A stretch of 64,000 nt of DNA, taken from the IMG/VR virus record IMGVR_UViG_2920292642_000002, positions 19,431-83,430 of that record, one strand, 5' to 3'. This DNA is from a virus. Its lineage: Duplodnaviria > Heunggongvirae > Uroviricota > Caudoviricetes. How positions within the stretch are numbered: position 1 is the stretch's first letter; each line of letters starts with the position of its first letter. The position numbers and the translations under genes were made by a program. The notes under the pieces were generated by a model, which saw nothing but the letters and a program-made list of their open reading frames with translations, was not told the DNA's origin and made no database searches. This document shows positions 12,866-31,515 of the stretch, one piece after another.

Positions 12866-13299
12866 AAAGACTCCGTGCTGATGTTGAAAAGAAAAAGCCC
12901 GGCTGGAGCCGGGCTTTCTTCCCCTGTTCTGTTTACAGGCCGGGGATGCCCAGTGGGTTACGCCGCGAGGCGGTTGGCCACAGGGAAATTGTCGTTTGCG
13001 ACAGTTTCTAGGTTCGGACGATAACGGTGTACCTCACCGGGTCGCGTGTCCCCTTGCTCACAGCAGTCGATCCTATTTCGCCCCCATCATAACCACACTG
13101 AGCGCTGCCGTCTTGTGGAAGGCGCGGCCGTTGCCAGTGACGCCCACAGGCGTGATATCTAACCCCAAACGCGGGCCAGTGTGGTTATGGTGGAGGCGGC
13201 GGGTTCCGCCCCCGCGTCCTGCATGCAATCCAGTTTCCCGGATTACGACCATGCGACGTACATACTCCGAAGACCGAGGTGCTGTCAAGTGTTTCTTGC

Positions 13300-14369: not shown

Positions 14370-14450
14370 TCGGCAAGGAAATCTATACGGACTGCGATCG
14401 CGACAATCAATAGACTCTGTCGCGTTTTAACAAGGGATAAGTGGGGCAAC

Positions 14451-16452: not shown

Positions 16453-16606
16453 CGCGGCCGACGACCTGTTCGACGCGGTGCTGCGTGAGCAGGAGATGCG
16501 ACATATCCTGCGCACCGCCTGCCCCTGTCACAATGAGAGCAACTGGTTCCGCAACGACGATGGCGTGATGGAATGCCGTCAATGCGGGGAAATGGTGGAT
16601 GAATAG
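16445..16606 (+). CDS. hypothetical small zinc-ribbon-like protein (CPCHNESNWF...CRQCGEM)
   Basis: ORF 16415..16606 from internal ATG 16445. Confidence 0.35.
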   Translation: MGSAADDLFDAVLREQEMRHILRTACPCHNESNWFRNDDGVMECRQCGEMVDE

Positions 16607-16607
16607 G

Positions 16608-17069
16608 ATGAGTGCAGAGCCTCAATACAAGAACATTCCAACGGTCTGCGTCACCGTCGTGCCGTTGACCACTGACAACAGGTTCAGCGGCATATTGCTG
16701 GTGAAGCGCGGTCTCAAGGACGATTGGCACGGTAAGTTGGCGCTACCGGGCGGCTATCAGGAGTTTGGCGAGACGTGGCAGGAGGCAGCCGCGCGCGAAG
16801 TTCGCGAGGAGACCGGGCACGAGGTCGAGATCGCGAGCAGGCCTTTTGCAGTCATGACGGTTCCGTCCGGCCACAACCTAATTTTCGGCGTGGCTTATCC
16901 GATCCCGTTCGACCAGCATGCCAACTACGAGCAGGTCGAGACGCTGGAGATCATGGCCGGCCGGGAGCCGTTCGAGCTTGCCTTTCCAGCGCACACCCAG
17001 ATTTACAATACGTGCCTGAGATTCCTCCGACAATCGCTGGACCTGAGCCACCTTTTCAGTAAAACTTGA
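16608..17069 (+). CDS. NUDIX hydrolase
   Basis: Nudix box GGYQEFGETWQEAAAREVREETG. Confidence 0.7.
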   Translation: MSAEPQYKNIPTVCVTVVPLTTDNRFSGILLVKRGLKDDWHGKLALPGGYQEFGETWQEAAAREVREETGHEVEIASRPFAVMTVPSGHNLIFGVAYPIPFDQHANYEQVETLEIMAGREPFELAFPAHTQIYNTCLRFLRQSLDLSHLFSKT

Positions 17070-19678: not shown

Positions 19679-19873
19679 TTAATGCTGGACGCCCTGAACC
19701 TGTTTTCCGCAGCCGGGGCAGACGATATACCAGACGGTGTCTCTACCGCCACCGTAGTCGGTGTAGCTGAGGGTCTGGACTTCCGACCGGGTGTAACGGA
19801 GCCGGGAGGCGCACGAGCGGCAGGTGCATTCGAACACCTGCGACTCGTCCCGACCGACAATCTGAACCATCAA
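19679..19873 (-). CDS. small zinc-ribbon protein (64 aa; CTCRSC...CPGCGK)
   Basis: ORF track; 4-nt overlap with nadV start. Confidence 0.45.
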   Translation of the reverse strand: MMVQIVGRDESQVFECTCRSCASRLRYTRSEVQTLSYTDYGGGRDTVWYIVCPGCGKQVQGVQH

Positions 19874-21288
19874 AGCCCCCTGTACTGTGCCCGCTCTCGA
19901 ACCTCGGCGAAGTTCCAGTGCTTGATCATCGGCACGGTGCTACGATCATCCATCCGGTAGACCGTCTGGAGGAGATCGCCGGGGACGGTGTATGGTCCTT
20001 CCGTGGGGATGGTTACGATGCCTTCGGTGCCGGGCATCCGGATGACATGCTGCACGCCGGCCTTTGACGCCTTCGACGGGTCGGTCTTCGGCTTCTTCTG
20101 GACGCTGTACCACGAGCCATCCGTGCGACCGATCGCCGAGGCCTTCATGGCGAAGCGCAGCGTGTCGCGGTTGACGTGCTGAAGCAGGCCGGCACCCATG
20201 CCGAAGGCGACGTTGTCGAGCGACCAGCCGTTTCCGATCATGGCGTCGACGATCTCGGTCAGGCTCTCGCGATCGATGCCGTCGCCCTGAATGAGGCGGA
20301 CCTTCGGGTGCAGGACCTTGTAGCCCTTCGAGTTGGTGGTGAAGCCCCATTCGTCGGCAAGCATCTCCAGCGACGACAAGACCAGATCAAGCGGATCGCC
20401 GCTGTCCGGGCGGATCACCAACGTCCCCTCGCGCGCATTCACGAGAGCACTCAGGTCACGACTCCAAATCTTCTGGAGTGCGTTCCAGTAGTCGTAGCTG
20501 TCGGAGACGACGGCGACGAGTCCACGCGGGAACTTCTCCAGCATGTTGCGATAGGCGTCGTTCTCGCGATCCGCACCCCACGACGTGATCGTGCTGTGCT
20601 CGGCGGCCGGGATCGAGAAGCCAGCCATGCCAGCATGGTAGTAGCGCTGGGCGAAGTACGCACCCATCATGGTGTCAGTGCCCTTGAAGTTCACCAGATG
20701 CGCCGCGCCGCCGATGCCGGCCTGCTCATTTGCACCCGTACCACGCGCGCCGAAATCATGGAGCTTGAACGGGGCCTGCCCGGCAGGATCATCGGACGAC
20801 CGCATCAGCGCGTCGACGATCACCTTCTTGATCTCGCGCGAGTTGGTGGCCACGGTCGACGGATACCAGACCGCGCGCAGCAGCGCCGTCTCGACGTAGC
20901 TGGTCAGCCACGGCAGGCGCGGATCGGTGTTGACAACCTGCACCATCGGAGTCCCGGTTGGCACCACCGTGCCCTCGGAAAGCGCCTTGATCTCTAGTGG
21001 TAGATATCCGTCGTATTCGTGAGCGATGATCTCCCAGCCGGTGCGATTGAACGGTACGCCGTGCGCCTCGCAGAAGGCCTCAGCCTCATCGATCACATTG
21101 GCGGTGACCTGCGGACCCCACAGCAGATATTCCTTGATGAACATCTGGAGGCCGAAGAAGACGACCTCGTCGTAGCCCTCCACCGGCCGCGCCTCGATGT
21201 AAGAGTTCACGAAGGCCGTCTCAGGCGGGTACTGGAGGAAGTGCGAAGTCTTGTAGCTGTCGGTATTCAGAATCGGATTGATCTTCAT
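19870..21288 (-). CDS. nadV: nicotinamide phosphoribosyltransferase (NadV/NAMPT)
   Basis: N-terminus MKINPILNTDSYKTSHFLQYP and full-length 472 aa NAMPT-like sequence. Confidence 0.9.
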   Translation of the reverse strand: MKINPILNTDSYKTSHFLQYPPETAFVNSYIEARPVEGYDEVVFFGLQMFIKEYLLWGPQVTANVIDEAEAFCEAHGVPFNRTGWEIIAHEYDGYLPLEIKALSEGTVVPTGTPMVQVVNTDPRLPWLTSYVETALLRAVWYPSTVATNSREIKKVIVDALMRSSDDPAGQAPFKLHDFGARGTGANEQAGIGGAAHLVNFKGTDTMMGAYFAQRYYHAGMAGFSIPAAEHSTITSWGADRENDAYRNMLEKFPRGLVAVVSDSYDYWNALQKIWSRDLSALVNAREGTLVIRPDSGDPLDLVLSSLEMLADEWGFTTNSKGYKVLHPKVRLIQGDGIDRESLTEIVDAMIGNGWSLDNVAFGMGAGLLQHVNRDTLRFAMKASAIGRTDGSWYSVQKKPKTDPSKASKAGVQHVIRMPGTEGIVTIPTEGPYTVPGDLLQTVYRMDDRSTVPMIKHWNFAEVRERAQYRGL

Positions 21289-21290
21289 GA

Positions 21291-22304
21291 TTACAGTCCC
21301 AACATGTCCTGAATGATGCTGAAGTGATCTTCGAAGAACTCACCGCGCTCCAGTGAGTCGACCGGGTGCCAGTTGGCACTCTCGGCGTCGTCCGCGCCGT
21401 TCACCCGCCACAACGGCTTGGCGTCCGGCAGACGGAACAGGAAGGCGTGCGTTACCGTCCGACCGCGAGTTGACCGATAGGGATTGTCGAAGACCTTGCT
21501 CTCGGTGATGTACGTGTCTAGCCGGCCGGGAGGGATGCGTCCGCGCCCGTCCGCGATCTCCGTCTCCTCGCGCAGTTCACGCACGGCCGCTGTACGGATG
21601 CGCTCGTACTGGTCGATGAAGCCGCCCGGCAGTGCGAGCAGACCCTTGCCGGGATAGTCTCCGCGCCGGATCAGGAGGATGTGGCCGGACTGGACGACGA
21701 CGGCGTCGACCGTGATGAAGGTCGGCGGGAAGGGTGCCGCCTCCCACGAGCGCCGGTAGCGCGAGATCGACTCGTGCTCGTAGTGGAGATTCCAATAGAA
21801 GTCGGAACTTACCCAGTCGTTCAGATATTGCCCGACTTCAGCAGGCATGGCCGTCGCGTCGATCTTCTTGAGGAAGGAGAAATAGGCGTTACGAATCGTG
21901 GTCGCGTCGAGCGTTCTGCGCGTCGACTGGATGTCGAGCGAGCCCCAGTCCGGGAAGAGCTTCAGATAGAAACTCGACTGATCCTTCGAGTAGCCGACCA
22001 GAACGATGTCGTCGCCATAGGCGTTTTCGTTCACGCTGTTGCGGACCTCAGCGATCCAGCGCTCATCGCTGGGATAGTCGCAGATCGGCAGGAACTCGAC
22101 CCGGCCGATCTCCTCGTCGGACAGGGTGCGGCTGATCATCTGCACCCGTTCATGGAACAGCCACGGGTTGCGCGTCGACCGCGCCGCGCCGGCCGAGCCG
22201 ACGAGGATCAGAAGTTTGTCGAGTTGGGAAAGAGATTCGCGGACGATCTGGAGATGGCCGCAGTGAAAGGGCTGGAAACGCCCTATAAAGACGCCAGTGC
22301 GCAT
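21291..22304 (-). CDS. natV: bifunctional NMN adenylyltransferase / Nudix ADP-ribose pyrophosphatase (NatV/NadM-Nudix)
   Basis: N-terminal nucleotidyltransferase GRFQPFHCGHL (HxGH) plus C-terminal Nudix box GGFIDQYERIRTAAVRELREETE. Confidence 0.85.
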   Translation of the reverse strand: MRTGVFIGRFQPFHCGHLQIVRESLSQLDKLLILVGSAGAARSTRNPWLFHERVQMISRTLSDEEIGRVEFLPICDYPSDERWIAEVRNSVNENAYGDDIVLVGYSKDQSSFYLKLFPDWGSLDIQSTRRTLDATTIRNAYFSFLKKIDATAMPAEVGQYLNDWVSSDFYWNLHYEHESISRYRRSWEAAPFPPTFITVDAVVVQSGHILLIRRGDYPGKGLLALPGGFIDQYERIRTAAVRELREETEIADGRGRIPPGRLDTYITESKVFDNPYRSTRGRTVTHAFLFRLPDAKPLWRVNGADDAESANWHPVDSLERGEFFEDHFSIIQDMLGL

Positions 22305-22392: not shown

Positions 22393-22932
22393 TTACATCG
22401 CCAGAACAGGACTGAGTTCGGCAAGCCGCTGCAACGGCATCCGCTGGTCGGCGATCATGCGGTAGAGCGGCATCTGTTCGCGACCACCTTGGAAGAAGGT
22501 CATCATGAAGAAATCGAACTCGTCGATGTGCTTGCCGGCCCAGATCGGATCGCGCGTCAGAAGGTCATGCTGGTGGTGGCAGTAGCGATCGGCGAGCTTG
22601 ACCAGCGACGCCCGTGGATCGGACGCAGCGCGCGGCAGTGAGATGGCCTTGGCTTCGCTCCGGGACAATCCCTCGGGATCGGTCACGAGGTCGACGATCC
22701 GCGCAATCTCGTTGCCGTAGGCGTAGCGGATGTCCTCGCTCTCGACATCGGTATCCTCGACGATGTCGTGCAGCCACGCCGCCGCGATGGTCTCCTGATC
22801 GGTCGTGAACAGTGCCACCATCCCGGCGACGGCCGTCAGGTGGTGCGTGTAGGGAAGATTGCCGTAGGTCTGGTTGCGGTGATGCTCGACCGCGAGCGCA
22901 CGCGCCGTATCGGCGACAGTTCGGTTTTTCAT
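22393..22932 (-). CDS. HD-domain (p)ppGpp hydrolase-like protein (small alarmone hydrolase-like)
   Basis: HHRNQTYGNLPYTHHLTAVAGMVA ... AAWLHDIVEDT resembles RelA/SpoT HD hydrolase domain; start at MKNRTV after GGAGAC RBS. Confidence 0.65.
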   Translation of the reverse strand: MKNRTVADTARALAVEHHRNQTYGNLPYTHHLTAVAGMVALFTTDQETIAAAWLHDIVEDTDVESEDIRYAYGNEIARIVDLVTDPEGLSRSEAKAISLPRAASDPRASLVKLADRYCHHQHDLLTRDPIWAGKHIDEFDFFMMTFFQGGREQMPLYRMIADQRMPLQRLAELSPVLAM

Positions 22933-23042
22933 ACAGGTCTCCTTGAGCCGGTCAGAGGTAATCCTTGACCTCCCGGACTGTCCAGAGTATCTGTCCAAGA
23001 CTGCGCGACTGTCAAGCGTATCTTTTCACTCTTATGGTTAAC

Positions 23043-23117
23043 GACGTGGTGGCGGAGTGGCTTACGCGCCGGATTGCAACCCCGGTCACGCCGGTTCAAT
23101 TCCGGCTCACGTCTCCA
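23043..23117 (+). tRNA. tRNA-Cys(GCA), CCA encoded, U73 discriminator
   Basis: manual cloverleaf: acceptor GACGTGG/TCACGTC, T-arm GCCGG-TTCAATT-CCGGC, anticodon loop TTGCAAC; A31-C39 mismatch. Confidence 0.6.
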
Positions 23118-24417: not shown

Positions 24418-25106
24418 GTTGACACTCCTATAAGGTTTTCAAAGAACATTCCGCCTCATTGGCAGCATCTATATCATAGCATATCTGGTTGATATTGCAA
24501 CAACTTTGTTCTTTGTAAGAATACTTGCGAGACAAGACTAGGTTGAGTGCAGACTAACTTTGAATACTACTGCAAACACGAAAAAGGCCCGGTGGGAGAC
24601 GGGCCTTGATGGTTAGGGGTTGAGTGCAGAGACTAACATCGCAGGAATGATGACGATCTGGAGGAGAGCGGCTGGTCTTGATCCGCAGACCTCTCCCGAG
24701 GTCCCAACCGTTTTCGAGACGGTGCCGGCGCGCCTGTCCGGTTCACTCTCCATAACTGGTCCGAGGGGAGAGAATTTGCACTCCCACAGTCTAAGACGGC
24801 CGCTTTACAGGCGGTTAGGCTCACTCGTGCCCAGCCCTCGGATGCGCGATCGCGTATAAAGCGAGTTTATCCGGAATCGCGTATAAATGGCGGAAGGCGG
24901 TGGCCCTGATCCACTAACCCGTGCGGGTCTCATCCGTTTAGCAAACGGAGCCGGCCCGAGCCGGTTCACCTTCCAGAAATGAAATGGAGGAGACGGAGAG
25001 CAGGCCAGTATCGCTCGCGCTCGATTACGGGCGCGCCGGCCTGTCTCCTAGCCCTCTTACTCGCGCCATCCTATCGAGCCAACAGGACCGCTTCGGCAGG
25101 GCATCT

Positions 25107-25192
25107 TGGCGGAGAGCGGAGAACTCGAATCCCACACCTTGCGGTGCGCTTCGCCTTCCAAGCGGGCCGGGAACCTATCCCGTTCACTCTCC
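25107..25192 (-). tRNA. tRNA-Ser(GGA), class II
   Basis: manual fold: acceptor GGAGAGU/GCUCUCC, long variable arm, loop UUGGAAG, T-loop TTCGAGT, CCA encoded. Confidence 0.5.
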
Positions 25193-25196
25193 ATAC

Positions 25197-25272
25197 TGGT
25201 CCCAGCGGCAGGATTCGAACCTGCGACCTCTCCCTTATGAGGGGAAAGCACTACCGCCGTGCTCCACTGGGT
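25197..25272 (-). tRNA. tRNA-Met(CAT) (elongator or Ile-lysidine type)
   Basis: manual fold: T-arm GCAGG-TTCGAAT-CCTGC, anticodon loop CTCATAA, CCA encoded. Confidence 0.6.
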
Positions 25273-25748
25273 TAATCGCGTCGGACCACCTGAATGGGGC
25301 CGTCCGACAGAATGTCGTGCTTGATGCAGACCTCGACGGCGCGCTCGGCCGTCGCGCCCATCTCCAGAGCACCCACGGCGATCATGTCGCCGGAGCCGAA
25401 GACGTGCCATTCGCTCTCGACCTCGTAAGGTGGATCGTCCCCCTCGAAGCGGATGCAGACGCCGTCCGGCTTGATCACGAAGCCGGTGCAGTTGTCGTCC
25501 TTCCCAGTCGGCTCGATCCGAGGACTGCTGTACTCCAGATTCTGGAGGAACTTGGGGAAGTTGTCCGAGCGGCACCAGCGGATGAACTTGGCGACGTAGG
25601 GCGCTTCGCCGGTCCCACCGACGAGGTAGGCTTCACCATCGACATCGACGCGAGCGATCTTCTCGGCGTGGCCGAGCACGTTCCAGTTGCGTCGGATCAA
25701 CTGAGAATCCGACGCAAGGACACCGTCACGATAGACGAGGACAGTCAT
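25272..25748 (-). CDS. HslV-like N-terminal-nucleophile peptidase (proteasome beta-subunit family)
   Basis: MTVLVYRDG N-terminus (Thr2) and GSGDMIAVGALEMGATAERAVEV similar to HslV. Confidence 0.5.
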   Translation of the reverse strand: MTVLVYRDGVLASDSQLIRRNWNVLGHAEKIARVDVDGEAYLVGGTGEAPYVAKFIRWCRSDNFPKFLQNLEYSSPRIEPTGKDDNCTGFVIKPDGVCIRFEGDDPPYEVESEWHVFGSGDMIAVGALEMGATAERAVEVCIKHDILSDGPIQVVRRD

Positions 25749-26131
25749 CAGTAGCGCGCCGCGCCGAGCGAACGGGAAGGCGCAGCGCCCAGACCGGTCT
25801 CGGTGGACTTCTTGCCCTTCTTCTTGTTGTCGTCGAAGAACTTGTCGAGCGACTGGACCTGCACCGCCTTGACGATCAGGCGAACGATCGCGACCGGGTA
25901 GGTATTGGCCGAGGCCGAAACATCTCCGAAAGTGGCGATCGACGACTCGGTGTCGCCATTGCCGATCTTCCCGCCGACATCCCCCTTTCCGAGGATCGAA
26001 TTGACGGCCGCAGCCGCCTTGGTCACGTCGGTGAGGTCGGTGCCGAGGAGATTGTTCGCTGCTGCGAGCGCCGCGTCCTCGTCGTTGAGCTTGCTGATTT
26101 CGACCAGCTTCTCGAAGTCGTTTCTGTCCAT
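25748..26131 (-). CDS. hypothetical protein (127 aa)
   Basis: ORF track. Confidence 0.45.
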   Translation of the reverse strand: MDRNDFEKLVEISKLNDEDAALAAANNLLGTDLTDVTKAAAAVNSILGKGDVGGKIGNGDTESSIATFGDVSASANTYPVAIVRLIVKAVQVQSLDKFFDDNKKKGKKSTETGLGAAPSRSLGAARY

Positions 26132-26203
26132 GCCCGGAACTCCCTTGTGGTTAGGCTTGCGGGATTCCGTTTAGGGGTTCTTTACGGCAGTGTCAAGAAA
26201 AAC

Positions 26204-26277
26204 TGGATGCCCTGCCACGACTCGAACGTGGACTCATCGCTTCAAAGGCGCGCGTCCTACCTTTAGACGACAGGGCA
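26204..26277 (-). tRNA. tRNA-Gln(TTG)-like; weak anticodon stem
   Basis: manual fold: acceptor TGCCCTG/CAGGGCA, T-arm CCACG-TTCGAGT-CGTGG, loop CTTTGAA, CCA encoded. Confidence 0.5.
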
Positions 26278-26287
26278 GGAGTGAGGG

Positions 26288-26360
26288 TGGCTCGGCAGGT
26301 ACGGGTCGAACGTACATCGGCTGATTCAGAGTCAGCGTGCTTACCATTAGCGACTGCCGA
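26288..26360 (-). tRNA. tRNA-Gln(CTG)
   Basis: manual fold: anticodon arm GCTGA-CTCTGAA-TCAGC, T-arm GTACG-TTCGACC-CGTAC, CCA encoded. Confidence 0.6.
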
Positions 26361-26366
26361 ATAAAC

Positions 26367-26443
26367 TGGTGCCAAGGGGAAGTTTCGAGCTTCCGACCTC
26401 CGGGGTTTCAATCCGGCGCTCTAACCATCTGAGCTACCAAGGC
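26367..26443 (-). tRNA. tRNA-Phe(GAA)-like; U-U mismatches in acceptor stem
   Basis: manual fold: D-arm GCTC-AGATGGTTA-GAGC, loop TTGAAAC, T-loop CTCGAAA, CCA encoded. Confidence 0.5.
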
Positions 26444-26451
26444 ATAAAAAT

Positions 26452-26537
26452 TGGCTCGCGAGGGAGGGATCGAACCTCCGCCCCCTTCGGGGTCCACCGG
26501 TTAACAGCCGGGAACATTACCACTCTGCCACTCGCAA
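26452..26537 (-). tRNA. class II (long variable arm) tRNA with anticodon loop CTGTTAA (reads GTT/Asn-like; one base from Tyr GTA)
   Basis: manual fold: variable arm CCCCGAAGGGGG, T-arm GGAGG-TTCGATC-CCTCC, acceptor starts UU. Confidence 0.45.
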
Positions 26538-26546
26538 TCATAACAC

Positions 26547-26634
26547 TGGAGAACCGGGTGGGGATCGAACCCACGGTGGGCTTTCGCCATCGGATTAAAA
26601 GTCCGCGCCCTTCGACCAACTTGGATACCGGTTC
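26547..26634 (-). tRNA. class II scaffold tRNA with Lys anticodon TTT
   Basis: manual fold 88 nt: acceptor GAACCGG/CCGGTTC, variable arm GGCGAAAGCC, loop CTTTTAA, T-arm GTGGG-TTCGATC-CCCAC. Confidence 0.45.
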
Positions 26635-26640
26635 ACGATC

Positions 26641-26715
26641 TGGAGCCCTGCTCGGGGACCGCACCCGCTTCTACCGCTTACAAGGCGGCTGCTTCACTCT
26701 CAAAGCTTTCAGGGC
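26641..26715 (-). tRNA. tRNA-Thr(TGT)-like; non-canonical T-loop TGCGGTC
   Basis: manual fold: D-arm GCTT-TGAGAGTG-AAGC, anticodon arm GCCGC-CTTGTAA-GCGGT. Confidence 0.5.
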
Positions 26716-26721
26716 ATTGTC

Positions 26722-26796
26722 TGGAGCCTCGGTCGGGAACTGCACCCGCTTCTGACCGGTACGAACGGCCTGCTTCACTCGCAAAGCTTTCGAGGC
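26722..26796 (-). tRNA. tRNA-Thr(CGT)-like; non-canonical T-loop TGCAGTT
   Basis: paralog of previous unit; anticodon arm GGCCG-TTCGTAC-CGGTC. Confidence 0.5.
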
Positions 26797-26807
26797 ATAA
26801 TAAATAA

Positions 26808-26895
26808 TGGAGTACCCGGCTGGATTCGAACCAGCGGTGTGCTTTCGCAGGCGGATTAAGAGTCCGACGCCATCGACCAACTCGGCCACGGGTAC
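26808..26895 (-). tRNA. class II scaffold tRNA with Lys anticodon CTT
   Basis: manual fold 88 nt: D-arm GCC-GAGTTGGTCGAT-GGC (Ser-like), loop CTCTTAA, variable arm TGCGAAAGCA, T-arm GCTGG-TTCGAAT-CCAGC. Confidence 0.45.
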
Positions 26896-26901
26896 ATTAG
26901 C

Positions 26902-26975
26902 TGGAGCCGACACGTGGAATTGAACCACGGCTCCGTCCTTACCACGGACGGCGTCTACCACTGACATATATCGGC
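26902..26975 (-). tRNA. tRNA-Thr(GGT)
   Basis: manual fold: anticodon arm CGTCC-GTGGTAA-GGACG, T-arm CGTGG-TTCAATT-CCACG. Confidence 0.6.
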
Positions 26976-27060
26976 AAAATTTAACTGTCTCGATTAATCG
27001 AGCCGCAACTTGTCCTTGCTACAACCGCTGTGCTGATCACAACACCACGAGGCAACAGAC

Positions 27061-27243
27061 ATGATGAAACTGCTGAAGCGCTTCCAGAGCGATGAGTCTG
27101 GAGCAACTGCAATCGAATACGGCCTGATCGCTGCTTTGATCGCGCTGGCGATCGTCGTCGGCGCTGGCGCACTCGGCGAGAACCTGAACGCCAAGTTTCA
27201 GGCAATCAGTGACCAGTTGGCGGGTACGCCGGAGGGAGAATAG
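27061..27243 (+). CDS. flp: Flp/Fap-family type IVb (Tad) pilin precursor (60 aa)
   Basis: prepilin signature KRFQSDESGATAIEYGLIAALIALAIVV matching the Flp motif; own terminator follows. Confidence 0.75.
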   Translation: MMKLLKRFQSDESGATAIEYGLIAALIALAIVVGAGALGENLNAKFQAISDQLAGTPEGE

Positions 27244-27282
27244 AGTTCCTTGTCCGCGTTACAGCAACGACAAGCAACTGAC

Positions 27283-27310
27283 CGCCCTCCGGGGCGGTTT
27301 TTTTTTTTTG
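27283..27310 (+). terminator. rho-independent terminator of flp-like gene
   Basis: CCGCCCTCCGGGGCGG hairpin followed by T11. Confidence 0.65.
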
Positions 27311-27386
27311 GTGGAGACGGTGAGAATCGAACTCACAACAGCCTGCTTGCAAGGCGGGCTCGCTAACCCTTAGAACATGCGTCCCC
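27309..27386 (-). tRNA. tRNA-like, probably Ala(TGC); D-arm unclear
   Basis: T-arm GTGAG-TTCGATT-CTCAC, acceptor GGGGACG/CGTCTCC, loop CTTGCAA. Confidence 0.4.
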
Positions 27387-27563
27387 AAACTCTGAAAAAT
27401 GATCCGGCAGGCGGGCGAGTGTCCCCGCGTCATCTCCCCGGCTAGACAGCACCGAGGTTTTGCAGCCACGCCTTGTCTAAGGGCGGGTCGCTATGTCCGG
27501 AAGGTCACGTTATTCCACGCCAGACCATCCGCTGCTCGTCGCGTTCTGAGCTACTGCCGAAAC

Positions 27564-27640
27564 TGGACCTTCCGGCTGGGATCGAACCAGCGCCCTCCAG
27601 CTTCGGAGGCCGGCGCTCTTGTCCGCTGAGCTACGGAAGG
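27564..27640 (-). tRNA. tRNA-Arg(CCG)
   Basis: manual fold: anticodon arm CCGGC-CTCCGAA-GCTGG? with T-arm GCTGG-TTCGATC-CCAGC, acceptor CCTTCCG/CGGAAGG. Confidence 0.55.
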
Positions 27641-27643
27641 AAT

Positions 27644-27718
27644 TGGAGCGGGTAGCGAGGGTCGAACTCGCGCCTCTAGGCTGGCAACCTAGTGCTCTAC
27701 CAACTGAGCTATACCTGC
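27644..27718 (-). tRNA. tRNA-Gly(GCC)
   Basis: manual fold: anticodon arm CTAGG-TTGCCAG-CCTAG, D-arm GCTC-AGTTGGTA-GAGC, T-arm GCGAG-TTCGACC-CTCGC. Confidence 0.6.
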
Positions 27719-27905
27719 AATTTCGCGGGGTGGGGCTCAGGTCATCACTCCTGTCCCCTGAGCGGGTGATGATCCGGTTTGGGGCCGGTCCCTCTCCCCC
27801 TGCTCGGAGAGCCCGAAGGCTCAATCCTTGGAAACTCTCGACAGGGGTCACCTGTCGCTAGGCAAGGCTCTGAAGGTTGACGAGACCTTCGCCCTTGCGT
27901 GCCTA

Positions 27906-27983
27906 TGGCCTCCCCGGAGAGATTCGAACTCCCGACACGGGAGGTAGAAGCTCCCTGCTCTAGGTCCACTGAGCTACGGAGAG
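27906..27983 (-). tRNA. tRNA-Arg(TCT)
   Basis: manual fold: anticodon arm GGGAG-CTTCTAC-CTCCC, T-arm GGGAG-TTCGAAT-CTCTC. Confidence 0.55.
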
Positions 27984-28431
27984 GAGATCGCTTTTGGAGG
28001 GAGGCCAGCAGGCCATCGTTAGATGGAGTGTCAACACAACGGAGTCGCAAGACTTGCCGAAGCTGCCGACCTCCCGCCAAAGGCGATCTAGGTGCCGAAA
28101 GCGTGAGACTACCGCTTTCGATGACGACCTTCCCGCATTATCCGACGCCTTGCGAGCGTGGTTCTCGGGATGTCCACGCCGAGCATATTGCTATGTCTCG
28201 ACGTATTCGTCAATGCCGCCTTTTTTAGCGCGTGGCGTTTCGCGCGTCGCTGCGTGCTATTCGGCGTCTCGTCGACCGTGAGCCTTGCGGGCTCTTCGCG
28301 GCTGCTACACCGCTACGATCTCTTCCTCACCGACACCCTCCAGCTTGCGACCTTCAGGTGACCCAGTTCCCCGCAGGGCTGGGCATTAGGCATCTTTCAC
28401 ACGCAACCGGGACAGGCTTTGCGTTTTGTTA

Positions 28432-28506
28432 TCGTGAGGCCGGATTTGAACCGGCGACCGATGGCTTAGAGGGCCATTGCGCTACCAACTGCGCTACTCG
28501 CAACCC
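28432..28506 (-). tRNA. tRNA-like (anticodon loop CCTCTAA, TCT with C33; no encoded CCA) - possible pseudo-tRNA
   Basis: T-arm GCCGG-TTCAAAT-CCGGC, D-arm GCGC-AGTTGGTA-GCGC, acceptor with mismatch. Confidence 0.35.
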
Positions 28507-29061
28507 ACCGAGACGTGCTGCCCCAGTTGCTCCAAGCCCTTTTGGGACCCAGAATACAACACGCCTGCTGCTACCTTTCGCGCTGCTAACGCTACTCGAT
28601 CATGCTTCGAGATCACGGGTCATTTCAGCCCGAGACCTTGCCACATTGCCAGACGCCCTCGGCCGCTAAGCCTCGAACCTTCTGACTACCCTTCATCATC
28701 GGCCATCGATCAGTTTGCGTGCCGGGCGCGCTTTGCGAGCGCTTGAGGGCCACCATCGGCTACCCTCTTATCCAACCTTGCGGGTCGGACCCTGCCTGAT
28801 CTTCGGGCCTAGCCCACCTTCCGGTAAGCCGGGTGTCCCCGTGACTGGGCTTGCATGGCTGGACGCGGTTACCCGCGTGGAGGTTTATGGGAAACCCTCC
28901 TTTGGGCCGGTTGCCCGGCTTACCCTGACGACGCCATGCCGCCAAACTCTGCTCCGGTTCTCGTCGCCGATCGCCGTCGCCTTGTTGTCCTCTAACTACT
29001 TCACGACTGCGCCGCCCGTCAAGCATTAATTTGCAATCGTGTTAAGATTTTTTCGACATAC

Positions 29062-29141
29062 TGGAGCGCACGGCAGGGGTCGAACCTGCATCTTCCTCCA
29101 TTACCTTACTCTCGGTTCGTAGCCGAGGGGGTTACGTGCGC
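29062..29141 (-). tRNA. tRNA-Arg(ACG)-like with aberrant architecture (no recognisable D-arm, 21-nt insertion after anticodon arm)
   Basis: perfect acceptor GCGCACG/CGTGCGC, anticodon arm CTCGG-CTACGAA-CCGAG identical to E. coli tRNA-Arg ACG, T-arm GCAGG-TTCGACC-CCTGC. Confidence 0.4.
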
Positions 29142-29146
29142 ATAAA

Positions 29147-29222
29147 TGGCGAGCCATAAGGGAGTCGAACCCTCCTTCTCCGATCGACAGTCGGAGCCCT
29201 TCACCACGACGGGAAATGGCCC
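29147..29222 (-). tRNA. tRNA-Asp(GTC)
   Basis: manual fold: anticodon arm TCCGA-CTGTCGA-TCGGA, T-arm GAGGG-TTCGACT-CCCTT, CCA encoded. Confidence 0.6.
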
Positions 29223-29230
29223 ATTGAAAA

Positions 29231-29305
29231 TGGAACTGGGAGCCCGGCTCGAACGGGCGATTCCGGGGACACAACCCGGCCGGTTACCTCTACCGTCATC
29301 CCAGC
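29231..29305 (-). tRNA. tRNA-His(GTG)
   Basis: manual fold: anticodon arm CCGGG-TTGTGTC-CCCGG, T-arm GCCCG-TTCGAGC-CGGGC. Confidence 0.6.
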
Positions 29306-29313
29306 ATAGTGTT

Positions 29314-29388
29314 TGGAGCGGACTGCCGGGATCGAACCGGCCTTGGGAGATTGGAAGCCTCTTAACTCACCGAGAGCAAGCCCGCATG
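29314..29388 (-). tRNA. tRNA-like, probably Gly(TCC); short D-arm
   Basis: T-arm GCCGG-TTCGATC-CCGGC, acceptor GCGGGCT/AGTCCGC, loop CTTCCAA. Confidence 0.4.
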
Positions 29389-29400
29389 TCTGGTACGCCT

Positions 29401-29482
29401 AGCAGGACTTGAACCTGCACGCCGAAGCACGGGCATCTCAGTCCCGCGTGTCTACCTTTCCACCATAGGCGCATGTTTGTTT
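29401..29482 (-). tRNA. tRNA-Leu(GAG), class II
   Basis: loop CTGAGAT, variable hairpin TGCTTCGGCGT, T-arm GCAGG-TTCAAGT-CCTGC. Confidence 0.5.
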
Positions 29483-29621
29483 GGCGGGGCCGAACACCTG
29501 TCGACCCGATCCGGACGCGATCCCGGACCCTGCACGATTACCCTCTCGCCGATCGCGCGGCCGTTCATGACCGGCCTTTGTTCTCGGGCGATTTTGATGA
29601 AGAGAGTCGCCGTCGCCAATC

Positions 29622-29704
29622 TGGTGTCCGAGGGGAGACTTGAACTCCCACGCCGAAGCTCTGCGGTCTGAGCGCAGTGCGTCTTCCGATTCCGCCACTC
29701 GGAC
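29622..29704 (-). tRNA. tRNA-Leu(CAG), class II
   Basis: anticodon arm CTGCG-CTCAGAC-CGCAG, variable AGCTTCGGCGT, T-arm GGGAG-TTCAAGT-CTCCC. Confidence 0.6.
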
Positions 29705-29710
29705 ATGTCT

Positions 29711-29820
29711 GGTGGAGTGTGACCGGATTTTTACCGGAGCCCATAGGGACAGGTGTACGGCCTGTTCGGGATAGGCAGTCCCGCTCGCAGACCTCTAGCG
29801 GTCCGCTTAATCACAACTCC
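29711..29820 (-). ncRNA. unresolved 110-nt tRNA-like RNA (acceptor-like ends GGAGTTGTG...CACACTCCACCA, multiple internal hairpins; no canonical T-loop)
   Basis: encoded CCA tail and terminal helix but atypical internal structure. Confidence 0.3.
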
Positions 29821-29825
29821 ATAGA

Positions 29826-29904
29826 TGGTGCCTCGCCCCGGATTCGAACCGGGAGGATGTCGCCGGGTTTGAGCCGACCGCGTCTTCCGTTCCGCCAGCA
29901 AGGC
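29826..29904 (-). tRNA. tRNA-Leu(CAA)
   Basis: anticodon arm GTCGG-CTCAAAC-CCGGC, T-arm CCCGG-TTCGAAT-CCGGG. Confidence 0.55.
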
Positions 29905-29960
29905 ATTGATACGTTTAGAGGTATAGAGCGCGCGGCTCTATACGTCTAAAGGTATCAGAT

Positions 29961-30035
29961 CGTGGCAAAGGCTGAGAGATTCGAACTCCCGCCGCAGGGT
30001 TTTGGAGACCCGCATGCTACCGCTACAACAAGCCG
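29961..30035 (-). tRNA. tRNA-Trp(CCA)-like; two mismatches in acceptor stem
   Basis: anticodon loop CTCCAAA as in E. coli tRNA-Trp, T-arm GGGAG-TTCGAAT-CTCTC. Confidence 0.45.
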
Positions 30036-30556
30036 ATCCACGAGCCCCGGCCGGACGGATTCCCGGCCGGGGTTTCTGATGTCATCATTCCTACGATGTC
30101 AAAGAACGGGACCCTAACTAAGGTCCAAATGCAAGAAGGCCCCGGAGATTTCTCGCCGGGGCCTTCTGATCGATCCGAGGATGGTACTGTTAGAATACAG
30201 TACCTCCGTCGCCAGAAGACCCCATGATACCGAACAGATTGGTATCAAGCAGACGCAAGGAGGCGCGGCGCGACTGCGCCGTCCCACTCGTCATTTGATG
30301 CCAATACTGCTGTTTCACAGCGGTCTTCCTTGTTCACGTCCCTCAGGAGAGCGGATATCCGCTGGTCGACTCCGAGGGCTCATTCCGAAATTCTGTTGCG
30401 GTCCCCATACGGTGAACCTGAGAGCGGCGTCAGCCAAGCTCAGCGCGAATGATGAACAATCCTGAGACGTTTGTCAAGCAAGAAAATCATCCGTCTCAAG
30501 AAAAAGTTTACATCGGAAAAGGTTGACGATCGAGTCACGAGGGCTAGATGTCGGGC

Positions 30557-30676
30557 TGTTACGAAGTCGGAGCATGGTGCTCTGATCATTTTTGAGAGGG
30601 AGCAATCTCAAGAGTGAAAGTGGACTCTTCCCAGACTTGACCATGAGTCTAGCCCGCTTCGGCGGGCTTCTTTTTT
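30557..30676 (+). ncRNA. candidate small RNA (promoter-like TTGACG-N17-TAGATG upstream, strong terminator at 3' end)
   Basis: no credible ORF; hairpin GCCCGCTTCGGCGGGC followed by TTCTTTTTT at 30653-30676. Confidence 0.25.
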
Positions 30677-30679
30677 GGA

Positions 30680-30754
30680 TGGCAGCCCATGACGGTTTCG
30701 ATCCGTCTTCTCCTGATTGAGAATCAGGTGTCCTATCCACTAGACGAATGGGCC
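30680..30754 (-). tRNA. tRNA-Glu(CTC); T-loop ATCGAAA (A54)
   Basis: anticodon arm CCTGA-TTCTCAA-TCAGG, D-arm GTC-TAGTGGATAG-GAC, CCA encoded. Confidence 0.55.
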
Positions 30755-30758
30755 AAAT

Positions 30759-30837
30759 TGGTCGGGCGGACGGGGCTCGAACCCGCATCGCAACGCTTGA
30801 AAGGCGCGCCACCTAGTCCAGTTTAGAAGGACCGCCC
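30759..30837 (-). tRNA. tRNA-Glu(TTC)-like; weak anticodon stem
   Basis: perfect acceptor CGGGCGG/CCGCCCG, loop CTTTCAA, T-arm GCGGG-TTCGAGC-CCCGT. Confidence 0.5.
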
Positions 30838-30914
30838 GTGGTCCTCGACCGTGGTTTCGATCCACGTGCCTCCGGCGTGTCGTGCCGGCGCTCTCCCGAG
30901 TGAGCTAGTCGAGG
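30838..30914 (-). tRNA. tRNA-Val(GAC)-like with C33 (loop ACGACAC); abuts previous tRNA
   Basis: anticodon stem CCGGC/GCCGG, T-arm CGTGG-ATCGAAA-CCACG, acceptor CCTCGAC/GTCGAGG. Confidence 0.45.
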
Positions 30915-30915
30915 T

Positions 30916-30991
30916 TGGTTGACCCTGCCGGTTTCGATCCGGCTGCCTCCTGTGTGTAAGACAGGCGCTCTCCCGAGTGAGCTAAGGGTCT
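30916..30991 (-). tRNA. tRNA-Val(TAC); 1-72 mismatch
   Basis: anticodon arm CCTGT-CTTACAC-ACAGG, T-arm GCCGG-ATCGAAA-CCGGC. Confidence 0.55.
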
Positions 30992-30995
30992 GAAC

Positions 30996-31069
30996 TGGTT
31001 GTCCCACTGAGAATCGAACTCAGATCAACCGCTTATCAAGCGGACGCTCTACCGTTGAGCTATGGGACG
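30996..31069 (-). tRNA. tRNA-Ile(GAT); C1-A72 mismatch
   Basis: loop TTGATAA, D-arm GCTC-AACGGTA-GAGC, T-arm CTGAG-TTCGATT-CTCAG. Confidence 0.55.
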
Positions 31070-31110
31070 ACACCGGGCCGAGGCTTGCGCCCCGACCCGA
31101 TGGGGCTTGT

Positions 31111-31185
31111 TGGTCTGGGTGCGGAGTTCCGCCCTCCGGCATCCGGCTTCCAAGGCCGGTACTCTTCTGCACGAGCTTCACCCAG
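31111..31185 (-). tRNA. tRNA-Pro(TGG)-like with non-canonical D- and T-loops
   Basis: perfect acceptor CTGGGTG/CACCCAG, anticodon arm CCGGC-CTTGGAA-GCCGG, T-loop GGCGGAA. Confidence 0.4.
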
Positions 31186-31195
31186 TTATCAGGCA

Positions 31196-31240
31196 AAAAA
31201 GAAGGCCCGGTTTTCACCGGGCCTTTGAAGTTGCCAACAG
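31196..31240. terminator. bidirectional hairpin terminator
   Basis: GGCCCGGTTTTCACCGGGCC flanked by AAAAAAGAA and TTTGAAG. Confidence 0.5.
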
Positions 31241-31352
31241 AACTCTTGATTGGTTCAGTCGCGCAATACCTTCCGGCCCGATTCCTCGGTCGGTTCAATG
31301 ATCTCCACGACGGGGACGATCAGGTTGCGCACTGGTGTTCTCCTAACGAAAT

Positions 31353-31431
31353 TGGTTGCGGCGGCTGGATTTGAACCAGCGATCTTCTGGTTATGAACCA
31401 AACGAGATTGACCGGGCTTCTCTACACCGCA
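31353..31431 (-). tRNA. tRNA-Met(CAT) (second CAU tRNA; Met/Ile2 unresolved)
   Basis: loop TTCATAA, D-arm GAGA-AGCCCGGTCAA-TCTC, T-arm GCTGG-TTCAAAT-CCAGC, CCA encoded. Confidence 0.5.
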
Positions 31432-31515
31432 TCAGTCGGAGCGAACTCTCTCACAGGTCGGAGGTTGTGTCAACTCTTTTTTAGCGGCTCAATAAACTTT
31501 TTCTGGACACACAAA

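Follow-up and report, generated by a model that had tools for sequence, protein, structure and literature searches.

Reshaped tRNA bodies, conserved across many phages, in the tRNA gene island of a probable alphaproteobacterial phage

Why phages carry tRNA genes is an old question, and some phage tRNAs are known to beat tRNA-cleaving immunity by point changes. We analysed a 64,000-nt stretch (the window) of the IMG/VR virus record IMGVR_UViG_2920292642_000002, positions 19,431 to 83,430, which probably comes from a large phage, or a prophage, whose host is an alphaproteobacterium of the Rhizobiales. Its minus strand holds a tRNA gene island, running from 31431 down to 24659, that packs ~35 tRNA-like genes into 6.8 kb. 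Together with the wider families to which its members belong, the island presents natural tRNAs in which whole elements have been gained or lost and the Lys/Asn identity rules are kept. Comparison across phages shows these architectures to be common to many other phages and, from their substitution patterns, held by selection. With moderate confidence, we favour the explanation that the island supplies a phage-owned tRNA pool whose reshaped bodies evade tRNA-targeting enzymes while ordinary anticodon loops are kept; evasion of tRNA-targeting defences by such bodies is plausible. Phage tRNA islands, the presence of GOLLD RNA in them, (8/4) tRNA-Ser and the evasion hypothesis itself are already known.

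At default settings, ARAGORN reported 25 minus-strand tRNAs at 25197-31431 and one plus-strand Cys(GCA) gene; the Rfam tRNA model supports 22 of the 25 at its gathering score. Relaxed ARAGORN searches, weak Rfam matches, hand folding and comparison with relatives added ten tRNA-like genes: Pro(TGG), Glu(TTC), a five-armed Tyr(GTA)-like element, Arg(ACG), Thr(CGT), Thr(TGT), Ser(GGA), Ser(GCT), Tyr(GTA) and Ser(CGA). Standard tRNA finders overlook about a quarter of the genes in this island, and phage tRNA counts are therefore underestimates. Low-scoring ARAGORN calls at 28659-28752 (in the GOLLD 5' domain), 25676-25771 (in an open reading frame, ORF), 27829-27923 and 27461-27535 were judged false. 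About 34 island tRNAs are decoders, and a module nested in the GOLLD RNA is not. With the Cys gene added, none of the 20 amino acids is left uncovered, and wobble rules extend the set to nearly every sense codon. The many clustered tRNA genes on one strand of a phage genome mark this as a phage tRNA gene island, and the phage genes around it encode terminase, PolA, an SNF2 helicase and a primase-like protein.

An earlier note on this DNA had described about 30 minus-strand tRNAs at 25107-31431, closely packed and all encoding CCA, and a plus-strand Cys gene at 23043. The array is real and its lower end lies ~450 bases further, at 24659; the packing is as tight as claimed, with the two Val genes spaced by 1 base and Val(GAC) abutting Glu(TTC), and the Cys gene is where the note placed it. 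CCA is encoded in every island gene except the GOLLD-nested module. The note's list of specificities was right on three or four Arg, Pro, three Thr and Ser, left out Asn, both Lys, Ala and Tyr, and missed the GOLLD RNA, one of its Arg genes being the module nested there.

The nearest relative, and the only close cultured one, is Mesorhizobium phage Cp1R7A-A1 (MT188704; locus L001), with DNA identity of ~81% over 29% of the island and a PolA protein 83.6% identical. A metagenome contig (L041) with the same island gene order is a third lineage member, and phiCbK-like, DSS3P8-like and RcXuper-like phages of Alphaproteobacteria are farther kin. The window is a further member of the Cp1R7A-A1 lineage. 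The Cp1R7A-A1 island has the same gene order, two long-arm Lys and one long-arm Asn, three 8/4 Ser, A54 in Val and Glu, C54 in Phe, a D-arm-less Arg and an odd Pro (neither of them annotated in that genome), a GOLLD that contains a tRNA, and both in-island ORFs. The window differs in its second Gln, Thr(CGT) and Thr(TGT) with odd T-loops, five-armed Tyr-like element, Arg(TCT), Flp pilin gene and the anticodon of the GOLLD-nested tRNA; neither Glu(TTC) nor the five-armed element has a clear ortholog in Cp1R7A-A1. Between window and Cp1R7A-A1, 402 stem pairs are identical, 67 are changed on both sides and still paired, 20 show compatible one-sided changes and 23 are broken, a pattern indicating that island tRNA structure is under purifying selection. 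All three lineage members keep the long arm of Lys and Asn, the Arg without a D-arm, the His that lacks G-1, Phe C54, A54 of Val(GAC) and Glu, Ile C1.A72 and Gly(GCC) A3.C70.

Textbook tRNA sets all class Lys and Asn as type I. At 86-88 nt, the window's Lys(CTT), Lys(TTT) and Asn(GTT) have variable arms of 15-16 nt with 3-4 pairs, capped by GAAA in both Lys and by a GAAG loop in Asn. They share with type II tRNAs a variable arm of >10 nt, a helix of 3-5 bp (the type II range being 3-7 bp) and a Ser/Tyr-like D-arm. They differ in specificity, type II being confined to Leu, Ser, Tyr and selenocysteine, whereas these carry the anticodons UUU, CUU and GUU with Lys/Asn-type discriminators, and in their short, GNRA-capped arm. 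Relatives were sought with a pattern spanning the D-arm to the anticodon arm; in the metagenomes a strict 36-nt Lys(CTT) pattern has zero matches, and the counts given here come from a looser one. Matches fell on 10 viral and 38 metagenome contigs and on 3 contigs among 185,579 species genomes, a distribution that shows long-arm Lys/Asn tRNAs to be, as far as pattern matching can tell, restricted to phages.

Across 55 loci the family has 62 different sequences. Their arm forms a hairpin of 3-5 bp, which ends in a GNRA loop in 43 of the 62 (GAAA in 30). G73 is present in all nine Asn, and the 53 Lys have A (28) or U (25), never G. Among 20 representatives, three arm pairs are never broken, with 12, 8 and 2 double-sided changes. 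Cultured carriers, in which the genes are annotated as plain tRNA-Lys or tRNA-Asn, include Ruegeria, Roseobacter, Rhodobacter, Rhizobium and Xanthomonas phages; Pseudomonas phage phiKZ has a tRNA-Asn (NC_004629 269557-269645; L012 572-660) of 89 nt, with an arm of GGC-GAAA-GCC and G73. The nearest sequences outside the family are a phage Tyr(GTA) and a Ser(GCT), each one anticodon base from GUU, which hints at an origin by anticodon shift.

Some long-arm tRNAs lie beyond this core. Two Thermoleophilia metagenome-assembled genomes (72% G+C; L015 6852-6937 and L016 7181-7266) each have a single long-arm tRNA-Lys(UUU) with no encoded CCA, on large chromosomal contigs of two species with one neighbour gene in common; native bacterial use or prophage remnants may account for them. 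A 275-kb contig binned as bacterial in a Saprospiraceae metagenome-assembled genome, likely a prophage or a mis-binned phage, carries 11 tRNAs in a phage-like array, long-arm Asn and Lys among them (L014 644-2545). Viral and metagenome contigs of the search (L006, L007, L011, L021, L040 and others) also carry long-arm Cys(GCA) of 86-88 nt, Gln(TTG) of 88 nt, Ile(TAT) of 90-95 nt, Trp(CCA) of 85 nt and Gly(TCC) of 84 nt; arm gain in jumbo-phage arrays therefore extends beyond Lys and Asn. Arm loss is seen as well, the reverse of what occurred in Lys and Asn: Leu(CAA) of the window has an 8-nt loop in place of a long variable arm, and two Leu genes of Cp1R7A-A1 (7368-7524 of locus L001) have 5-nt loops.

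The Arg(ACG) gene lacks a D-arm. It consists of a 7-bp acceptor stem, a 7-nt linker (UAACCCC), the anticodon arm CUCGG-CUACGAA-CCGAG, a 21-nt segment (AGUAAGGUAAUGGAGGAAGAU), a T arm and U73-CCA. The acceptor, anticodon and T helices, the 7-nt loop with ACG, the T-psi-C loop and the CCA of a canonical tRNA-Arg(ACG) are all present; the D-arm is missing here and in 10 homologues. BLAST retrieved unannotated homologues from Cp1R7A-A1, Rhizobium phage RHph_I1_18, Xanthomonas phages XacN1 and Xoo-sp13, and Stenotrophomonas phages CM1 and RAS14. At least 10 homologues occur in diverse phages, annotated in none of the GenBank records examined. An alignment of seven sequences has 99.3% of its pair cells filled by a pair, with two-sided changes at 12 of the pairs. 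Invariant in the family are the loop CUACGAA, the linker GUAACC and the linker GGUAAUGGA..GAA.AU. The T-loop UUCGACC is invariant in the seven, the three members found later reading UUCGAAU, UUCGAAG and UUCGAGU. A covariance model (R1) gave known members 98-107 bits and ordinary tRNAs at most 38, and recovered three further members on viral contigs (L008, L011 and L033) at 54-78 bits, with the same motifs and U73-CCA.

Since the 21-nt segment carries the D-loop-like AAUGGA, we infer that D-loop function was moved 3' of the anticodon arm and not lost; an ACC/GGU short helix, both strands of which are nearly invariant, may form under the anticodon stem. The anticodon arm presumably matches that of E. 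coli tRNA-Arg2. The three-helix form, with a short connector replacing the D-arm, recalls mitochondrial tRNA-Ser of nematodes and mammals, from which the phage Arg is set apart by its normal T arm, T-psi-C loop and conserved 21-nt segment. Phages go unmentioned in a 2020 review of non-canonical tRNAs, and a 2024 paper has all known bacterial tRNAs as cloverleaves. Open-access papers, a scope that makes this weak evidence, yielded no account of long-arm Lys/Asn tRNAs, nor of tRNAs lacking the D-arm other than mitochondrial ones.

The three Ser tRNAs of the window have an 8-bp acceptor stem and a 4-bp T stem, together a 12-bp acceptor branch, with variable arms of 4-6 bp, anticodons GGA, GCT and CGA, and discriminators G73, G73 and U73, respectively. 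Across six such genes, including these three, both helices are paired throughout, 11 pairs have changed on both sides, and the eighth acceptor pair is GC in five and UA in one. (8/4) tRNA-Ser has already been reported in tRNA clusters of alphaproteobacterial phages (Mukai 2017, PMC5389517); the window genes share with that set and its allo-tRNAs the 8/4 partition, long arm, Ser anticodons and genomic setting, and differ in that Ser(CGA) combines U73 with a bulged T stem. [quoted passage not shown] Its tRNA-His, considered for that class, was rejected as a 7/5 form with a 3-nt linker in which U8 would face C, although the missing G-1 and U73 do fit and are as in alphaproteobacterial systems (Mukai 2017, PMC5389517).

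Pro(TGG), Thr(CGT) and Thr(TGT) have neither the GG of the D-loop nor the T-psi-C of the T-loop, and their elbow contacts must therefore be replaced. Pro(TGG) has a cloverleaf as its minimum-energy fold; an unannotated sequence in Cp1R7A-A1 matches the gene at 94.7% identity, and the acceptor and T stems of the two show compensatory changes. The paralogs Thr(CGT) and Thr(TGT) have compensatory differences; the phage collection searched held no homologue of Thr(TGT).

Smaller deviations recur through the island, and automated folding returned those that the earlier note had obtained by hand, which rules out manual error. Pair 27-43 is mismatched in 10 genes (Ile, Glu(TTC), Trp, Gly(TCC), both Lys, Asn, Gln(TTG), Ser(GGA) and Tyr) and pair 31-39 in two (Leu(GAG) and Phe). 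Acceptor mismatches occur in Ile (C1.A72), Val(TAC) (A1.A72), Trp, Gly(GCC) (A3.C70), Phe and two Thr. A54, in the T-loop AUCGAAA, is found in both Val and Glu(CTC), C54 in Phe, and T-loops other than T-psi-C in the five genes Pro, Thr(CGT), Thr(TGT), Ser(GCT) and Tyr. Anticodon-stem mismatches affect 42% of window tRNAs versus 21.5% of a comparison set of 418 other phage tRNAs, drawn from other phage arrays only (p=0.027), and acceptor mismatches 23% versus 9% (p=0.034), an enrichment of ~2-3 fold; pooling the window with its relative gives p=0.0017 and 0.00017, respectively. Neither C33 alone nor A54 alone is in significant excess over the 418. U33 and T54 are near-invariant in cellular elongator tRNAs, and nearly all anticodon loops of the island are canonical, with seven bases, U33 and a purine at 37. 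The note's recurrent C33 comes down to two genes, the GOLLD-nested non-decoder and Val(GAC), whose counterparts in Cp1R7A-A1 and L041 have U33, and we rejected it as a recurrent adaptation.

Evasion of tRNA-targeting immunity by phage tRNAs has already been published (van den Berg 2023, PMC10264068), and two reports describe rescue of infection from PARIS and retron nucleases by phage tRNAs (PMC11464382, PMC11555353). The known nuclease-insensitive tRNAs (T5 Lys, Thr and Asn against PARIS, T5 Tyr against retron Ec78, and mycobacteriophage C1 arrays) resemble the island in coming from large sets that include the targeted specificities, in a tRNA repair ligase encoded by the genome, and in the concept of a phage-owned pool (PMC10264068, PMC11464382, PMC12409363, PMC11555353). 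The published cases involve point changes in the anticodon stem-loop or D-loop, whereas the window tRNAs, known from sequence, have gained or lost whole elements.

In the mechanism we favour, host RNase P and 3' processing enzymes would excise the tRNAs and host synthetases would charge them. The altered bodies would keep what synthetases and the ribosome recognize and drop features read by tRNA-cleaving or -modifying enzymes of the host or of rival elements, such as AriB-like Toprim nucleases, PrrC/RloC, nucleases of the colicin type, and the toxSAS and GNAT toxins, which read the acceptor. The phage would thus translate while the host tRNA pool is attacked. The earlier note had placed evasion in variants of anticodon loops and stems. 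What stands of this is that the structures are selected and the gene context fits; the loops themselves are canonical, and the strong conserved departures lie in the body, in the variable arm, D-arm, elbow, acceptor/T partition, and 1-72 and 3-70 pairs. Body departures in families spread over many unrelated phages are therefore no local loop/stem adaptation, and, with anticodon loops canonical and bodies altered, evasion, if it is the driver, would work mainly by shape.

Two enzyme systems bear on where such shape changes might act. The toxSAS toxins read acceptor pairs 1, 2, 4 and 5 (PMC11245113). AriB cuts Lys(UUU), Thr(UGU) and Asn(GUU), requires the site U36AAUC|A41 and also contacts the D-loop (PMC12409363). 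The block Asn-Lys-Thr-Thr-Lys-Thr (26452-26975) comprises AriB's specificities, and five of its six bodies are strongly altered, Thr(GGT) being the exception, a coincidence that is suggestive only.

Several points weigh against evasion as the purpose of the island. PrrC, colicins and VapC read the anticodon loop, and canonical loops would therefore give no escape from nucleases that read the loop only. Lys(UUU) keeps the AriB site UAAUC; it reads UAAUCC against the E. coli site given above, with U39, the sensitive state, and C41, a partly protective change. Mismatches at 27-43 also occur in 14% of other phage tRNAs and C33 is confined to the window, so that either may be a neutral lineage trait. 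The ArgRS identity element A20 sits in the D-loop, which makes charging of the D-arm-less Arg uncertain. Finally, human studies link Schlafen-type nucleases to type II tRNAs, and a long arm could attract such enzymes.

Genes in the neighbourhood may serve the same end as the tRNAs. An RtcB RNA ligase, correctly identified in the earlier note, lies ~9 kb beyond the 3' end of the array, and the window also encodes a permuted tmRNA of the alphaproteobacterial type that ARAGORN did not report, a Nampt, an NMNAT/Nudix fusion, a second Nudix protein, and, adjoining the tRNA island, an HD_4 protein resembling RelA/SpoT hydrolases. RtcB seals the 2',3'-cyclic phosphate and 5'-OH ends left by anticodon nucleases, and phages use NAD+ salvage sets against NAD-depleting defences. 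HD-type small alarmone hydrolases strip the pyrophosphate that toxSAS toxins add to the tRNA CCA end (PMC11245113), and the HD_4 protein could be such a hydrolase, reversing CCA pyrophosphorylation. RtcB, tmRNA, Nampt, NMNAT/Nudix and HD_4 would fit a theme of keeping translation alive under attack, in which repair, rescue, NAD salvage and the HD hydrolase would act alongside the tRNA pool.

The island might instead serve supply and balance only (codon usage, late expression, host shut-off), its odd shapes being neutral or nearly so, tolerated by host enzymes and spread among phages by cassette transfer. A near-complete decoder set with encoded CCA fits plain self-sufficiency, several of the deviations are unconserved or common elsewhere, and the non-canonical families recur in phages that differ widely in host and in G+C content (35-61%), which fits cassette inheritance over local adaptation. 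Drift is insufficient, however, to explain why the GNRA cap, the GGUAAUGGA linker and the eighth acceptor pair were kept through many compensatory changes. The window has a G+C content of ~60%, close to that typical of Rhizobiales, so that little codon compensation should be needed, and the adjacent genes are of repair or counter-defence type. We consider supply alone unlikely, though a serious competitor.

Some members might not decode at all and act as decoys or sponges, regulators, or partners or cargo of a GOLLD nanocage, the candidates being Arg(ACG) with its missing D-arm, the Tyr-like element with five arms, the low-scoring Glu(TTC) and the module within GOLLD. For the last this is the case: it lacks CCA, and its body is kept while its anticodon loop varies (CCUCUAA here, UUCAGGA in Cp1R7A-A1 and CAUCUAA, with A33, in L041; anticodons TCT, CAG and TCT), and the module is therefore structural. 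For the two elements without orthologs in Cp1R7A-A1 it is possible. GNRA loops are classic docking elements, a point in favour of such roles. It has been proposed that GOLLD cages could hold phage tRNAs (Kretsch 2025, PMC12286853), and work on AriB raises tRNA as a competitive inhibitor (PMC12409363). As an account of the island, however, this is improbable. The window has no other Lys, Asn, Pro or Ser tRNA and no other Arg reading CGU/CGC/CGA, and a complete set therefore needs these genes as decoders; they retain the CCA, the discriminator and the acceptor stem. The anticodon loop is read by ArgRS and by the deaminase TadA, and the Arg(ACG) loop CUACGAA is invariant, as expected if both still read it.

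A further possibility is that the long-arm Lys/Asn are Ser-type bodies that are charged by SerRS, an enzyme indifferent to the anticodon, and that recode AAR/AAY or poison host translation. Their D-arm (GGCCGAG..GGUCGA) resembles, we assume, that of E. coli tRNA-Ser/Tyr, the nearest sequences outside the family are the Tyr and Ser genes named above, and G73 is present in the Asn type. The long arm together with G73 is what SerRS uses (Mukai 2017, PMC5389517; Krahn 2020), but none of the 53 Lys has G73, its constant presence in Asn is as AsnRS requires, and the arm is short, at 3-5 pairs. These are, moreover, the sole Lys/Asn tRNAs of the island, in many phages and with both anticodons, and proteome-wide mis-incorporation is unlikely; we give SerRS charging very little credence. 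Least credible of all is that the deviant genes are decaying pseudogenes or folding errors, which is contradicted for most of them: ten fall below default ARAGORN or Rfam thresholds and two have no ortholog, but automated folding agrees, the families are kept across distant phages, the odd features are preserved by compensatory evolution in two relatives, and compensatory changes outnumber broken pairs 67 to 23, on which ground we reject it.

We raise, as a tentative idea with less in its favour than against it, that phages of Proteobacteria share a re-engineered tRNA set (GNRA-arm Lys/Asn, D-arm-less Arg, elbow-less Pro/Thr and 8/4 Ser) not yet described as a class and constituting a shape-orthogonal translation kit, accepted by synthetases and ribosomes but not by immune enzymes of the host that recognize the standard tRNA body, or that the GNRA arm docks to some phage RNA, the GOLLD cage for example. 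If true, shape evasion would be a second route beside anticodon-loop point mutations, and bacterial systems would tolerate non-cloverleaf tRNAs. With the island and its families as test substrates, one can ask what parts of a tRNA are required by the bacterial ribosome, RNase P, TadA, synthetases, toxins and defence nucleases, whether bacteria can make use of tRNAs that are not cloverleaves, and whether GOLLD has a functional tie to the tRNAs around it.

Table 1. Features of the tRNA island and of other parts of the window, in window coordinates.
Feature	Position	Strand	Support or remark
tRNA-Met(CAT), 79 nt, first island gene	31353-31431	-	ARAGORN 119; Rfam 59.3 bits; TTGACA upstream 31468-31473
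tRNA-Pro(TGG), altered elbow: D-loop GUGCAGAA without GG, T-loop GGCGGAA	31111-31185	-	Missed by ARAGORN and Rfam
tRNA-Ile(GAT), C1.A72 and U27.U43 mismatches	30996-31069	-	C1.A72 kept in Cp1R7A-A1 and L041
tRNA-Val(TAC), A1.A72, T-loop AUCGAAA (A54)	30916-30991	-	Cp1R7A-A1 ortholog, 3 compensatory pairs
tRNA-Val(GAC), A54, C33	30839-30914	-	U33 in Cp1R7A-A1 and L041
tRNA-Glu(TTC), irregular D region, C27.U43, abuts Val(GAC)	30759-30838	-	Rfam 28.2 bits; ARAGORN 88 (relaxed threshold)
tRNA-Glu(CTC), A54	30680-30754	-	ARAGORN
~300-nt structured RNA, own TTGACA (30472-30477) and terminator (30138-30163)	30138-30442	-	Conserved in Cp1R7A-A1 and L041
tRNA-Trp(CCA), two acceptor mismatches and C27.U43	29963-30037	-	97% identical to Cp1R7A-A1; TTGACA upstream 30097-30102
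tRNA-Leu(CAA), 8-nt unpaired variable loop, no long arm	29826-29904	-	
Five-armed Tyr(GTA)-like element, ends ACCA, extra 7-bp hairpin between acceptor and D arms	29710-29820	-	Fold z-score -3.1
tRNA-Leu(CAG)	29622-29704	-	ARAGORN
tRNA-Leu(GAG), A31.G39 mismatch	29391-29472	-	ARAGORN
tRNA-Gly(TCC), A27.C43	29314-29385	-	ARAGORN
tRNA-His(GTG), without G-1, U73, 3-nt linker, 7/5 form	29231-29305	-	Alike in Cp1R7A-A1 and L041
tRNA-Asp(GTC)	29147-29222	-	ARAGORN
D-arm-less tRNA-Arg(ACG)	29062-29141	-	Rfam tRNA 31.6 bits; covariance model 106.7 bits
GOLLD RNA, ~900 nt	28100-29000	-	RF02032 205 bits (3' domain 28100-28566); TTGACG 29017-29022 ahead
tRNA-like module in GOLLD linker, "Arg(TCT)", no CCA, C33	28430-28504	-	ARAGORN
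tRNA-Arg(TCT)	27906-27983	-	ARAGORN; TTGACA upstream 28029-28034
tRNA-Gly(GCC), A3.C70 mismatch	27644-27718	-	Mismatch kept in Cp1R7A-A1 and L041
tRNA-Arg(CCG)	27564-27640	-	ARAGORN
tRNA-Ala(TGC), C29.A41, weak score	27309-27386	-	Rfam 30.4 bits
Flp/Fap pilin gene, 60 aa, mid-island	27061-27243	+	PF04964, E 4.3e-19
tRNA-Thr(GGT), G32	26902-26975	-	ARAGORN
tRNA-Lys(CTT), 88 nt, long variable arm UGC-GAAA-GCA, U73	26808-26895	-	ARAGORN; family analysis
tRNA-Thr(CGT), T-loop UGCAGUU, D-loop without GG	26722-26796	-	ARAGORN 94.6 (relaxed threshold)
tRNA-Thr(TGT), T-loop UGCGGUC	26641-26715	-	Rfam 29.0 bits
tRNA-Lys(TTT), 88 nt, long variable arm GGC-GAAA-GCC, U73, G27.A43	26547-26634	-	ARAGORN; family analysis
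tRNA-Asn(GTT), 86 nt, long variable arm, G73, C27.U43	26452-26537	-	ARAGORN
tRNA-Phe(GAA), C54, two U.U acceptor mismatches, A31.C39	26367-26443	-	C54 kept in Cp1R7A-A1 and L041
tRNA-Gln(CTG)	26288-26360	-	ARAGORN
tRNA-Gln(TTG), anticodon stem of 3 pairs only	26204-26277	-	ARAGORN
Two ORFs within island (127 aa, no assigned function; 158 aa, HslV-family peptidase-like)	25272-26131	-	TTGACA 26191-26196 ahead
tRNA-Met(CAT) type, G8, CCC/GGG anticodon stem; Met or Ile2	25197-25271	-	ARAGORN
(8/4) tRNA-Ser(GGA)	25107-25192	-	Relaxed ARAGORN; comparison across six Ser genes
(8/4) tRNA-Ser(GCT), T-loop AUCAGGG	24888-24974	-	Relaxed ARAGORN
tRNA-Tyr(GTA), T-loop UGCAAAUU	24757-24841	-	Ortholog annotated tRNA-Tyr in Cp1R7A-A1
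(8/4) tRNA-Ser(CGA), one T-stem bulge, U73	24659-24751	-	Relaxed ARAGORN
Terminator-like hairpin and U-run at island end	24584-24607	-	
tRNA-Cys(GCA), sole plus-strand tRNA	23043-23117	+	ARAGORN, Rfam
HD_4 (RelA/SpoT-hydrolase-like) gene	22393-22998	-	
NMNAT/Nudix fusion	21291-22304	-	
Nampt	19870-21288	-	NAPRTase and NAMPT_N
Second Nudix gene	16599-17069	+	
RtcB RNA ligase	14361-15680	+	Pfam PF01139, E 3.5e-122
Permuted (two-piece) tmRNA	12958-13250	-	RF04321 101.6 bits; alpha_tmRNA 89.1 bits; TTGACA upstream 13283-13288
Large terminase, 937 aa	46566-49379	+	Weak Hint, intein and LAGLIDADG matches

The GOLLD 3' domain matches the whole Rfam model (positions 1-416 of 416) well above the gathering score of 150. 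The ~450 nt upstream of this match form a 5' domain with GNRA-rich helices that is conserved in the three phages, and from the TTGACG ahead of it the 5' end probably lies near 29000, for the total length given in Table 1. It is well established that GOLLD occurs in tRNA islands and contains a nested tRNA, which may be a pseudo-tRNA, and cryo-electron microscopy of env-38 showed GOLLD as a homo-14-mer nanocage (PMC12286853). The window copy shares with known GOLLD RNAs the full 3'-domain match, a variable 5' domain, the linker-nested tRNA and the location within a tRNA array; it differs in coming from a high-G+C alphaproteobacterial phage lineage and in being known here from its sequence only.

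No Rfam family at E<=1 matches the ~300-nt RNA at 30138-30442, in which comparison with Cp1R7A-A1 and L041 reveals compensatory changes; the Cp1R7A-A1 annotation has part of it as a 43-aa hypothetical protein. Minus-strand TTGACA elements stand at five intergenic block heads (31473, 30477, 30102, 28034 and 26196), which suggests several polycistronic minus-strand units, each behind a TTGACA-type element; a sigma-70 consensus scan was uninformative, with 3 sites against 2.0 expected. The two in-island ORFs are syntenic in Cp1R7A-A1, and the 158-aa ORF has no relatives among the viral contigs searched. Minus-strand spacers at 27391-27563 and 27795-27839, neither tRNA nor obvious ORF, are 79% and 93% identical to Cp1R7A-A1, with fold z-scores of -1.4 and -1.8; the 149-nt minus-strand spacer between Leu(CAG) and Leu(GAG) (29473-29621) is G+C-rich and moderately structured (z-score -1.95) and gave no BLAST match to Cp1R7A-A1.

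Neither of the two CAT tRNAs (25197-25271 and 31353-31431) has the bacterial initiator hallmarks of C1xA72 with a GGG/CCC anticodon stem. The former has G8 and CCC/GGG in reverse orientation, presumably as in tRNA-Ile2; the pair may be Met, initiator Met or Ile2 tRNAs. A strong terminator (27280-27299) follows the mid-island Flp/Fap pilin gene, and relatives of this phage group are reported to be pilus- or flagellum-tropic (PMC9437464). Outside the island, the weak Hint, intein and LAGLIDADG matches of the large terminase fall between its N- and C-terminal domains, and the protein probably contains an intein.

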